From Dictyostelium discoideum (lineage: Eukaryota), in the NCBI GenBank assembly GCA_000004695.1, contig CM000151.3, forward strand, positions 8,160,001-8,224,000: a DNA stretch of 64,000 nucleotides, given 5' to 3'. Under the pieces are notes generated by a model. It had not been told where the DNA came from and ran no database searches. It worked only from the letters and a program-made list of their open reading frames with translations. Of the stretch, positions 26,997-63,353 are shown in pieces. Both the position numbers and the translations under genes were made by a program. The first letter of the stretch is position 1, and every line of letters starts with the position of its first letter.

Positions 26997-29900
26997 TTAT
27001 TTTTTTTTTAAAAAATAGATATTACTTTTTTTAGATTTATTCTGCAAGTAAGTTTGTAAATCTTTATCATTAATGAAATTGTTATTTAAATTATTACAAT
27101 TTTCAATGTTAAGGTAATAGTTTATGATATGAGTTGAGTTTTGATAAAAAGCGCCAGAAATTGCATCAGTGGTGATTTTAAATTGTTTTGGATAGTATGA
27201 TAAAATTAGATCACATAGTTCAACATCACCTCTAATAAATGAACTTTTAAATAAATGATTTTTTCTTTTTGAAATTAATGAATTTAAATGTTGATCAACT
27301 AATGATTTCAAAATTTGTTGAATATTTGGTTGAATGAAAAACATCTCTAATGGTAATCTTCTAGAATCATCAATTTCCATTTCATCATCATCACTATTAT
27401 CGTCATCACCATCATAAAATTCTATATCTTCATTATTATTATCATCGTCATCATTAAATTCTATATCTTCATTATTATCATTATTATGATTATGAGCATT
27501 TTCATCTTCTTCATTATCATTATTATTATTACCATTTTTATCATCAATTTCTTCTTCTTGTTCTTCTTCTTCTTCACTATTATCAGCATACTCATTTTCT
27601 TCATTTAATACTTCTTCATGTGATCGATTAATAGTATTATAAATTCCTGGGATTAATTCTTTGAATATGTCGATTTTTGAATTAAGATTATCACCATTAA
27701 TTATTGTTGAATAAAAATGATTATATCTTGATACTTCATAAATTAAATGATTCATAAATTCAATATTGAATTTTGAATCCATAGAATGAAAAGCTAGAGT
27801 GGGTCCAAAAACGTGATTATTTGAAATTAAATCATGGTAATTTTCGTGCATGAACTTTAGATTTCTATAGTTGCTATAGATTTCTTCTCCTCGGTAAAAA
27901 CCAATAATACTATTACTGAGTTGAATATTCCCATTGAAATTATCCAATAGGTATCTTGAAATTTCAAATTTATGACAAAGTAGTGAATTTTGAAATAAGA
28001 TATCAATGAAATTGTTTGAATAATAGTTTAATTCAATTAATTTCTTAATTTCTTCAATTTTCATTATTTTACATGAATAATATAAAACATCTTTTGATAA
28101 TTTAAATTGATTAATAGTATTTAATGGTTTAAAAAATATTAATTTATTATTATCATCATCATCATTATTCCATTGAGTTGAAAATGTTGAATGAGATGGT
28201 GGTGGTGGTGATGATGAACCAAATTGATCATTTTTAGTAGGTTTCTTTAAATGAAATGGTGAATTATAAGTGAATTGTTCATTTCTAATATTTTGATAAT
28301 GTTGACAATTTAATTGTATCCATTGTAAATATTTAAAGAATGAATCAACTCTTCTAATTTCTAAAAGGAATTGTAAATCATAATTGAATTGGTCGTGGAA
28401 ATAATCAGATTTTAGAGAAGTTTTTGAATTATTTGAAAAAGCATGGTTATATAAATTAATTGAAAATGATTCAATTAATTTATTTAAAATGTCAAGGAAT
28501 GAGCCAACTTTTTCATGGTTTTCATTTTCCCCAATTACATAATCAAATGAGAAATCATTTAAATTAAAACATTTAAATAAATTAACACCAAAAACAGTGT
28601 GAGTGCTATTATTACCACTAAACTCACTACCATTTAAAACTCCACGATTAAAAATATCAATAAAAACTTTTATACCAGGTAAATTGATAATATACTTTGA
28701 AAATTTTGGAGATCTAATATTAAGATAAAAGAAAACATGACATATACCATGATCAATTGTAATTGAGTATTCACTTAATAAATTATGGACATATCTAACT
28801 TGATCAATTTTAACACCTTTGGTTTTAATTAATATTAAAAAGAAAAAATTTAAAATCCTAGTAATAACATAATCTTCAGTATCTGCATCTTCTTCAAGTG
28901 ATTCTTCAAAACCATTATTATTATTATTATTATTATTATTATTATTATTATTATTATTATTATTATTATTCTTATGAAATTTCTTTAAAAACAATTCAAT
29001 AATTTCAATGAAATTATCTATATCAATAAAACCATTATCATGACAATAATATTGGATTTGTTGGTATATATCAAAGATTTCATCGGATTTCTCGGTATTG
29101 TTGTGTCGTATATTTAATTTTGTAATTGTTGAGATTGAATCCATACTATTTATAAAAAGTCTTAGTGATTTAAAACTTAATGAAAAAACATAAATTAAAA
29201 ATCTATGGTTGATATCAGTTTGTGAGAATAATTGAAGATTTAATTTGAAATTTGGTGGGATGATAATGTTTATTAAAAAATGTCTTAAAAATAGACACAA
29301 TTCACCACTAACTTCAAAACTTTTAAAACCATTATCATTTAAATAGTTTAAAACTTTCATTCCATCTTCATTTGTCATATTTGGTAAACCATTCTTTAAC
29401 AATAGACAAATGGTTTTATCTACTGAAGCTATTAAGTCCAATGAATCTATTTTTTTTAAAGTTTCAATATCACATTTTAAAATTGAATTAAAGTATAGCT
29501 CATTTCTTTGTTCATCCATATATATATCATCAACATAATATTTAAAATCGATAATTTCATTTGTAGTAGTATCTCTAATAACTTCACAATTATACATACT
29601 TTGAAATTGATTAAAAAATATTTTACTAAAATTAATTTTTAAATCTTTAATAAAAAATTCTAATAATGCCTTTTTTTCATTTCTTGCATAAATCAATTCT
29701 AATTGTTCTTGTAAATACTTGGTGTTAATTTCACTTTCTTTTTCACAACTATAAAATCTTATATATAAACTTGAAAGTGATAAAAGAGTTTCCATTGAGC
29801 AATCTGCCTTTATTTTAGAAATTATAGCATGTTTTTCATTTTCTGTATTACATATAACATTTAAATCAATTAACTTTTTAATTACTTTAAAAGAATTTAA

Positions 29901-62100: not shown

Positions 62101-63353
62101 TAGATTGGATTGAACAATATATGATTAAAAATGAAAATTTAATGAAGCATCAAGTTTATCAATTCAATTCACCATATGAATCATTATTACCAACTAGTAC
62201 AATATTTTCAAATGTAAAAATAATAAAAAAAGAGGTACCATCACCATCGTCAACAACAACAATTGAAAGCACTTTTTTAAAAATTGATAATTTTGAAAAA
62301 CCAATACCAAATGAACCATCGATTAAAGTTTATTGGAATTCAGATAAATTAATTGAACCATTCAAACCAATTTCAAAACTTATAAATTCATTTAAATATT
62401 CAGACGATGTCTTAAAATCAATTTGTAAAGTAATGAATGTAAATGAAATTCAAAGATTTATTCAATATAATTTCTTTGTATCATTTTTTCAAAATGAAAT
62501 TTATACATATTCATCATTAATCAATAGAGAAGATTTAATGTCATTCCTATTAAACAATTATGATATTGATATTGATTTTCCAAACAAAGGATATTCAAAA
62601 TATTTAGGACGTAAATTCATCTTTGAAAATCATTTTGAAAAAGTCAATATTTTAAAATTAGATTTCAATCAAAAATGGTACGAAAGTCGTTATTTACACT
62701 TCCCATCGGTTTTATTAAACTATTTTTCTGAATACATTTGTCTTCAAAATAATATCACAACATATAATCAATTCATTCAAAATGATAATTTACAAATTAG
62801 AAAACGAGTAATTAAAGAAACAATTGAAATATTAATTGATCAATTCTTATCAGGTACAGATAATAATTATGATGATAATGATGAAGATGAGTATGGTGAA
62901 GACACTAATCAGAATTTTGCATCTATAATAAAAAATCAAAATCATAAAGTTTTACTCATTCAATCAATTATTGAACAATCAGATACTCAATTATACTTTA
63001 AATCAGCTTTAGATCAAGTTTTATTAAAATCAAAAGAAGATAGAAAAAATGATGAAATTAATGATCCATTCATTGAAAATCTTAAAAATCCATTCTTAGA
63101 ATCTTTTATAAATGGTGATATTAAAACTTGTAATCTCATTCTTGAATACTATCCAAATCAATTTAAAATGACTAAAGATTCAATCACTAAAACCTTAAAA
63201 ATGCAAAATATTCATATTATTAAATATTATTATAAAGTTGATAATTGTAAAAATTTAATTAATAATTTTAAAAATGATAATAATTTATTAAAACATTTAA
63301 AAAATGAATTACCAAAACATCCAATTTATAAATATCATTTAACTTGGTTATAA
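59196..63353 (+). CDS. Family copy H, 1385 aa, intronless
   Basis: Starts MSDRTEILFWKVFKNQFLFKEIF and ends ...HLTWL*. Poly-Asn (59995-60045) is followed by a (GAT)n poly-Asp tract of about 33 codons (60047-60150), with a poly-Ser tract at 61804-61895. Confidence 0.8.
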   Translation: MSDRTEILFWKVFKNQFLFKEIFNQIHNNEWIEYDEPNKYNVNNRCKFGDTHSLLIMIKNDQLPLIKDKIKHGDYVHFNYDSIRFLFLKLSTTEHLPPSIKNNNKNKYKDEDYLEIIELFMKHRRGEFEINDLIHIAASINSPVIIRLLVNEPYSVIIYPQTFEFAIRFSNLETIKELINLESLNFKNYGIKLISEEFKRKSLSLAAHRKTLKTTITEYIFNNPSLYSIPPPLSLINNQKQQDQQQTQSKNKRLKISETLHSNLNNKNNNNNNNNNNNNNNNNSDDDDDDDDDDDDDDDDDDDDDDDDDDDDGDGDDDSDNYTDSDNYNDNENGNDNYKEKIRNGYIESHEFIELKSTNLLKSFMELDIVVLSKTKTYFNQFLKMYHPYERLQVGIKMILKFDNTIPEKKREEILEEINKIDRNNERGFNKLKELRKLVVIEFPRQINFCYYYWKAYGENINKPGEVPKKLGSPDSNMETFENLLLENDLHVNNETNTQEGDENIEQVELLSNSLYSDSEDENEVEFERYVGQHDPFLEEYFNYSNRLRKEPFFDISNRYPDLLNSYLKAIKECNIEKLEDIDTNNPMFKLDVSKFHCFQLPNEKEDILKIWEYFNKHSFKQMIPIDILIEFLSSVTNIIPPFELKISNLKEPLFKKLGTFLLWQLFKKNYNIFELLLNSFDDFNFIFQPQELSAMIDQEKVLFDGDGELFQIDKEFGFQIIRIIKLVMDKFKKLSKDQINIKNMSTTYRLIINHLYDQLLRVKGLTIDQLEYVKSIIPEKLFFNYFKAYRIFFYLNIRSPKLTKYITKRPGVANFIENSEVEDYYNTIGPTTNLITGDEIIGFDLRKYLNLDLFTYDYILGRELNQYNCSSSSSSSSSSSSSSSSSSGSGSGSSSGSSSDGSKNNKKYITQFDTILRELIKQLSFNICTNLSNRDEIVGGKDFFNHSLNEDLKYSLDIGRKDLFWELLDWIEQYMIKNENLMKHQVYQFNSPYESLLPTSTIFSNVKIIKKEVPSPSSTTTIESTFLKIDNFEKPIPNEPSIKVYWNSDKLIEPFKPISKLINSFKYSDDVLKSICKVMNVNEIQRFIQYNFFVSFFQNEIYTYSSLINREDLMSFLLNNYDIDIDFPNKGYSKYLGRKFIFENHFEKVNILKLDFNQKWYESRYLHFPSVLLNYFSEYICLQNNITTYNQFIQNDNLQIRKRVIKETIEILIDQFLSGTDNNYDDNDEDEYGEDTNQNFASIIKNQNHKVLLIQSIIEQSDTQLYFKSALDQVLLKSKEDRKNDEINDPFIENLKNPFLESFINGDIKTCNLILEYYPNQFKMTKDSITKTLKMQNIHIIKYYYKVDNCKNLINNFKNDNNLLKHLKNELPKHPIYKYHLTWL

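Follow-up and report, generated by a model that had tools for sequence, protein, structure and literature searches.

A tandem array of fast-evolving genes for large, predicted helical-repeat proteins on chromosome 2 of Dictyostelium discoideum

We analyzed a 64-kb stretch of Dictyostelium discoideum chromosome 2 (8.48 Mb in AX4), of about 20% G+C and hereafter called the window, in which positions 26997-63353 hold eight paralogous genes, A to H. Six of them are intact single-exon coding sequences (CDSs) for proteins of 1250-1385 aa and the other two are pseudogenes (Table 1); among the intact copies, A is inverted and B, D, E, G and H are direct. On balance, the locus is probably a tandem birth-and-death array of functional genes, whose undescribed family has so far come to light only in D. 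dimigraforme and the D. discoideum clade. Each CDS was taken to start at the last Met ahead of an LFWKVF motif. The open reading frames (ORFs), their translations and blastn with the repeat unit agree on the eight paralogs and two pseudogenes proposed by the original prediction, which was made from the letters of this DNA, and the collinear sequence blocks that it quoted were all found in the copies. The annotation of AX2 contains identical single-exon products for B, D, E, G and H (1327, 1299, 1353, 1363 and 1385 aa), and D, G and H are sequence-identical in the AX2-214 assembly GCA_054883475.1.

Table 1. Coordinates of the array, its flank and its continuation past copy H. Positions are those of the window unless a contig is named.
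Feature	Coordinates	Strand	Description
Gene with repeated cofilin/ADF-H domains	24492-26149	-	flanks copy A
Cofilin gene-A spacer	26150-26996
Copy A	26997-30749	-	intact single-exon CDS, 1250 aa; divergent paralog, head-to-head with B
A-B spacer	30750-31421	.	672 bp, divergent, between the start codons of A and B
Copy B	31422-35405	+	intact CDS, 1327 aa
Copy C	36265-38614	+	pseudogene, from blastn of the repeat unit and tblastn of E
Copy D	38851-42750	+	intact CDS, 1299 aa; 100% match to NCBI/UniProt DDB_G0277643
Copy E	44055-48116	+	intact CDS, 1353 aa
Copy F	48351-54398	+	pseudogene, from blastn of the repeat unit and tblastn of E
Insertion in F	48434-50624	.	2.19 kb, ~290-bp terminal inverted repeats, no long ORF
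Copy G	54671-58762	+	intact CDS, 1363 aa
Copy H	59196-63353	+	intact CDS, 1385 aa, with a poly-D/N tract
Continuation past H	AX2 contig JBTAPE010000033.1, excerpt L001 14953-23318		broken copy pieces at 15383-15886 and 16656-17144

The proteins of B-H are 78-83% identical to one another, and A is 31-32% identical to each of them. Since A is thus no closer to B-H than paralogs elsewhere in the genome are, the label of founder that it had been given is unsupported. The period, previously put at a uniform 5.2 kb or so, is in fact a spacing of 4.1-5.2 kb once the insert in F is subtracted, and the array is not confined to the window as had been supposed: past H, AX2 has at least one more broken copy and then at least one intact 1290-aa copy (DDB_G0277585). 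Low-complexity tracts are specific to the copy, as expected, with poly-N ranging from 6 residues in D to 29 plus 33 in G (the longest), poly-S reaching 35 residues in G (the longest) and 20 in B, and a poly-D tract of 28 residues in H. At the DNA level, the similarity between units begins 45-50 bp upstream of the ATG and, downstream of the stop codon, consists of A/T-rich low-complexity sequence only; the spacers (147-1304 bp) are otherwise unrelated to one another. The A-B spacer is presumed to hold the promoters of both A and B. Retroposition was considered as the origin of these intronless, CDS-bounded units and rejected, because the copies are in tandem and in the same orientation and their flanks are merely A/T-rich low-complexity sequence. 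A scan for tRNA genes, aimed at tRNA-targeted retroelements, found none in the window.

The two pseudogenes were broken in different ways. Copy C is without its first ~556 codons, beginning at the equivalent of E residue 557, and tblastn of E against the region revealed two frameshifts and one in-frame stop in what is left. An insert at codon 28 divides copy F, which also carries at least three frameshifts and seven stops in the same kind of comparison. The terminal inverted repeats of this 2.19-kb insert are 88-92% complementary and enclose poly-T/A-rich internal repeats, so that the transposon strike suspected in the array is indeed present; the insert is likely to be a non-autonomous DNA transposon, judging from this structure. 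Part of the public gene set derives from such broken sequence. The AX4 model DDB_G0277579 (432 aa) was pieced together from pseudogene F, its first residues matching the ORF at 50720-51040 and its end resembling that at 51403-52068, and the AX4 model DDB_G0277585 (1235 aa) starts at an internal Met and is an N-terminally shortened form of the 1290-aa copy. The AX4 reference annotation of the locus therefore probably needs revision. Proteins exactly as encoded by A, B, E and G do not occur in the protein collection, where H is represented from the AX2 assembly only.

Two of the spacers contain sequence of their own. Within the 859-bp B-C spacer, ahead of C, lies an island of ~350 bp (35590-35940) whose G+C content is well above that of its surroundings and which overlaps a 108-aa ORF (35654-35980, + strand) with no evident meaning; the island may be a remnant of the event that truncated C, for example a fragment of a mobile element or a stray exon. 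The D-E spacer (1.3 kb) is the longest because a small spliced gene sits there: the AX2 annotation places a gene for 170 aa at 42962-43730 on the - strand, with a first-exon ORF at 43482-43745 (MTNSITNIESSSGSS...), which is unrelated to the array family.

We next consider whether the copies are maintained by selection. The ratio of nonsynonymous to synonymous substitution (dN/dS), obtained by the Nei-Gojobori method among B, D, E, G and H, was 0.79-1.11 with a mean of 0.88, and dS was 0.08-0.14. Because this estimator is biased at 20% G+C, we calibrated it by a neutral simulation with the observed substitution spectrum, for which the same estimator returned 0.84 +/- 0.12. Overall, therefore, amino-acid change has proceeded at the neutral rate, and in this sense the genes are fast-evolving, as the original prediction had it. 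Each copy carries 183-263 substitutions relative to the consensus, and if these were placed at random 12-16 stop codons would be expected; none of 2000 simulated copies stayed open for any of the five genes, and lesions of this kind are indeed seen in pseudogenes C and F. dN/dS was also compared between classes of codons, which were set from how well each site is conserved in A and eleven distant paralogs and thus independently of the B-H comparisons. In those comparisons dN/dS rose from 0.32 at conserved sites (210 codons) through 0.81 at intermediate sites (405 codons) and 1.06 at variable sites (421 codons) to 1.26 at linker or low-occupancy sites (226 codons), while dS was flat across the four classes (0.11-0.12). 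Since dS is constant, the low ratio at the conserved sites indicates that a structural core, about one sixth of the codons, is under purifying selection. The full-length frames are kept open, and together with the simulations the core shows that the copies are not drifting. The remaining positions and the linkers are unconstrained or mildly accelerated, changing at about the neutral rate.

To describe the proteins, we modeled copy D in two parts with AlphaFold2. For residues 1-480 (an alignment of 7 sequences), the predicted local distance difference test score (pLDDT) was 80-92 over residues 50-225, which form a stack of short helix pairs, and confidence was low at residues 1-50 and after residue 230. 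For residues 481-1299 (an alignment of 20 sequences including distant paralogs), the model was all-alpha with a mean pLDDT of 72.9 and a predicted template modeling score of 0.65, with disordered linkers breaking up the helices where the low-complexity tracts lie. The N- and C-terminal parts are thus both predicted to be built of alpha-helical hairpins, and the modeled fold may be described as a helical-hairpin repeat that is loosely ankyrin-like, ANK membership not being established. The highest 19-residue hydropathy was 1.51, so that no membrane segment is predicted; the intact copies encode soluble proteins of ~1300 aa without a signal peptide or membrane segment. As had been noted from the sequence, there is no recognizable catalytic or classical domain: Pfam gave no match above threshold for A, D and H, phmmer found no match among PDB sequences and the family profile found none there at E<=10, and Foldseek against the PDB returned nothing below E=0.1, its list consisting of ARM/HEAT proteins and ankyrin-R (probability 0.85). 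Against viral models, giant-virus ankyrin proteins topped the Foldseek list at E=0.017-0.06, none of them significant. No P-loop NTPase domain (NACHT, NB-ARC), the central domain of NLR/STAND-type intracellular receptors with repeat sensors, appeared in the Pfam scans, and the models are helical repeats throughout.

The range of the family was determined by an exhaustive profile search, in which the C-terminal 820 residues were compared with 1.84 billion representative proteins at E<=1e-3. It matched 31 clusters, of which 30 were looked up: 25 have a named source, in every case D. discoideum, D. cf. discoideum or D. dimigraforme, and the other five comprise P0009 (D. discoideum), one unnamed 119-aa sequence and three that were not found. 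A word-indexed homology search with full-length D gave at least 10 proteins, those listed all being from D. discoideum. The expectation of a lineage-specific family is borne out by the named clusters. At least 10 divergent subfamilies can be distinguished, copy A being one of them, and the distant paralogs are 1080-1430 aa long and 22-33% identical to D (for example DDB_G0274845); a nearer paralog, DDB_G0277653, is 58-64% identical to D. Distant members have in common an N-terminal block, E-[IL]-L-F-W-K-V-F-x-N-x-Y-L, a next block that ends in S-x-x-W-M-I, and the extreme C-terminus Y-K-[FY]-x-L-x-W-L. The databases list the family solely as 'hypothetical protein' and there is no Pfam model for it. 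Most of the relatives come from the genome assemblies of PMC12745789. Large alpha-solenoids (HEAT/ARM/PPR) are among the closest systems, including the reported I-TASSER resemblance of DDB_G0277585 to the inositol trisphosphate (InsP3) receptor (PMC8280847), which is a generic helical-repeat or solenoid match.

The array also varies between isolates. The order of the cofilin/ADF gene, the inverted A and then B onward is kept in two other assemblies, but the copy content differs. In ACTFIR, where L002 5713-13921 corresponds to window positions 31422-42750, the 3' half of the second direct gene matches C and is followed directly by the ortholog of D, implying that in the B-C interval a copy was gained or lost, or an unequal crossover occurred, between AX4 and ACTFIR. 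Positional orthologs are 86-88% identical in protein sequence in ACTFIR and 74-80% in ACTFIY, with dN/dS of 0.61-0.91 and dS of 0.07-0.15; a fragment of the cofilin gene (244-423 bp), used as a control, is 97.9% and 99.2% identical between isolates. Copies are thus gained, truncated, recombined and lost between strains. Along the same sequences, identity falls sharply from 98-99% in the cofilin gene to 78-90% in the adjoining spacer and copy A (L002 1-1318, L003 1-1105), and in ACTFIY the cofilin fragment, a very short control, has 0 synonymous differences at 52 sites against a dS of 0.146 in A. We make no claim that the alleles are hyper-polymorphic relative to the genome, because the control fragment is short and the isolates were chosen for their divergence, being deliberately divergent or cryptic species (PMC12745789).

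Taken as a birth-and-death array of functional genes, the locus would encode proteins in which disordered linkers of poly-N, poly-D and poly-S connect blocks made of short alpha-helical hairpins and the ends are capped by the conserved N-terminal block and the conserved extreme C-terminus. If both termini are needed, truncated copies would be removed by selection. The exposed repeat surfaces would be free to change or pushed to change, as is usual for recognition proteins that take part in conflict or whose partnerships change fast. Such proteins may serve as intracellular binding scaffolds or adaptors. Several points weigh against this account. The fold type and the evolutionary pattern are all that suggests a scaffold or adaptor role, and a literature search by gene ID gave the I-TASSER note only, with no expression, localization or interaction data. 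No structural match is significant, hence 'ankyrin-like' describes the proteins without classifying them. For a genome of 20% G+C the Nei-Gojobori estimator is crude, and the ratios of 1.06-1.26 exceed the neutral value by only ~1-1.5 standard deviations for those numbers of sites; as the overall dN/dS is at the neutral level and the excess at variable sites is not significant, the diversifying selection that had been suggested for the family is not demonstrated. Finally, the clusters searched were formed at 50% identity and may hide orthologs in D. citrinum, D. firmibasis and D. purpureum.

It is possible, but on the whole doubtful, that the proteins are true, highly diverged members of the ANK superfamily that act like other multi-ANK scaffolds. 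When 20 members were scanned with Pfam, no such domain family apart from Ank_3 (4 matches) and Ank_2 (2 matches), taken together, recurred in more than two of them, and the one other that recurred was Secretin_N_2 (2 matches). All six ankyrin matches are below the cut-off: the best E value was 0.0069, and the best scores were 17.4 bits against a gathering score of 27.3 for Ank_2 and 14.4 against 22.3 for Ank_3. With hhalign, a single designed ankyrin sequence, which makes for a weak test, could be aligned with the family at E=0.14, two repeats being in register. On the other hand, the empty result of the family profile against the PDB speaks against membership, as does the recurrence of helix pairs in the models, which is ~27-30 residues instead of the 33 of ankyrin, and the TPLH and GADVN loops are not evident in the alignment. 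The array proteins also differ from established ankyrin scaffolds, including the ANK families of giant viruses and of the intracellular bacteria of amoebae, in falling short of the Pfam gathering score and of any significant structural match, and in having their repeats broken by long low-complexity linkers and by helical blocks that are not repeats. Nor are the conserved caps at both ends a feature of ANK proteins.

We consider it unlikely, but worth stating, that the array is a strain-variable intracellular recognition system of a novel sort, in which the repeat surfaces would diversify to track fast-changing partners and further specificities would arise through tandem birth and death. The large repeat proteins would then carry a family-specific N-terminal docking block and a C-terminal tail, and the candidate partners are effectors of symbionts and pathogens of amoebae, whether bacterial or chlamydial, or else products that arise from conflict of a social or sexual nature. 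The system that invites comparison is the tgr locus, described in the same organism and the same set of genomes (PMC12745789), which likewise undergoes birth and death, duplications, truncations and recombination between neighbors and has alleles strongly diverged between isolates. The Tgr proteins, however, are transmembrane proteins with extracellular IPT/TIG domains, whereas the array proteins have no signal peptide, membrane segment or Ig-like domain (Pfam found no TIG domain in A, D and H) and so cannot act as cell-surface receptors.

The suggestion of the original prediction that the N-terminal block is F-box-like was also examined. According to it, the proteins would be adaptors of the Skp1-cullin-F-box (SCF) type, whose LFWKVF block binds Skp1 and whose repeats select substrates, and we now find this quite improbable. 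In outline the architecture fits, a short conserved N-terminal block being followed by variable repeats, and the tandem amplification and near-neutral surface change recall expanded F-box families in other organisms. In favor of the idea one may also count that some giant-virus FNIP repeat proteins bear N-terminal F-boxes (PMC9525666). Nevertheless, Pfam scans of 29 sequences, namely A, D and H and 14 relatives at full length plus the six window copies in their C-terminal parts, gave no match to F-box, F-box-like or PRANC domains at E<=1. When the family profile was aligned by hhalign with an SKP2 F-box-LRR sequence, again a weak test, nothing aligned at the N-terminus, and two N-terminal profile searches, insensitive for so short a motif, returned short fragments only and no other family. 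Moreover, in the window copies only 5-8 residues separate the Met from the LFWKVF motif, which seems too little for a canonical three-helix F-box of 40-50 residues, and AlphaFold places two helices there, at residues 3-12 and 16-27, with a pLDDT of only 39-54 over residues 1-50. Nematode F-box and MATH-BTB clusters do resemble the array in their tandem amplification, pseudogenes and copy differences between strains, and in combining a conserved terminal block and core with surfaces that change at or above the neutral rate; unlike them, the array proteins have no detectable F-box, BTB or ligase-docking domain and are 3-4 times larger. The diversity of C. elegans F-box genes is the subject of bioRxiv 10.1101/2020.07.09.194670. 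In kind, the array resembles other tandem, fast-evolving repeat-protein families.

Very little probability attaches to the idea that the array is evolutionary debris, that is, recent duplicates without present function drifting neutrally toward pseudogenes. The overall dN/dS, indistinguishable from the neutral calibration, would agree with it, as would the death of two of the eight copies already and the absence of expression evidence in the literature search by gene ID. The five copies of ~1300 codons that remain open despite the stops expected in each, together with the constrained core at unchanged dS, contradict it, and so do the intact orthologs in other strains and cryptic species and the divergent paralogs of ~1200 aa across the clade. 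We give equally slight credence to a selfish or mobile element, such as an ORF carried as cargo by a large transposon or a gene of the toxin-antidote or drive type, which the high copy number with divergent paralogs dispersed on several contigs, the fast turnover between strains and the narrow taxonomic range might suggest, since the Pfam scans showed no reverse transcriptase, integrase, transposase or recombinase domain, the shared DNA is the CDS with short flanks and no terminal repeats around the units, the array stands at the same site beside the cofilin/ADF gene in three assemblies, and the sole transposon-like sequence is the unrelated insert that breaks F; the copies are accordingly not those of a transposon ORF, an outcome that had been allowed for.

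Some observations concern the surroundings of the array. Farther upstream than the cofilin/ADF gene, the genes at 15755-17269 (+), 20376-21524 (+) and 3219-4979 (-) contain very long poly-N, poly-Q and poly-S tracts, and the long antisense ORFs that run through such tracts at 15660-16436 and 20546-21178 are repeat artefacts. Long tracts of this kind are typical of D. discoideum coding sequence. On the other side, the ID of DDB_G0277581 falls between those of DDB_G0277579 (F) and DDB_G0277585 (the copy past H). It is a prestalk gene with a SpaA peak in chromatin immunoprecipitation sequencing 1295 bp upstream, at ~8.276 Mb of chromosome 2 (PMC5923282, supplement file 2). We could not tie it to the array, and 8.276 Mb misfits our rough estimate of the array position; should it belong there, it would provide the family with its first evidence of expression.

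Research on social conflict, self/non-self recognition and host-microbe interaction uses D. discoideum as a main model, and to our knowledge the fast-evolving loci of this species are poorly catalogued apart from tgr and a few others. The locus described here offers a clean and clearly bounded case of an orphan family, whose genes are selected to stay full-length and whose sequence and copy content vary between isolates with public genomes; its conserved core could seed a new family model. If the proteins are not recognition adaptors, the array still documents an unannotated family of ~1300-aa helical-repeat proteins and corrects AX4 models built on pieces of pseudogenes. If they are, they would be an intracellular counterpart of the cell-surface tgr system, and were the repeat surfaces indeed to track fast-changing partners, the array would be a candidate innate-immunity or conflict locus in Amoebozoa.

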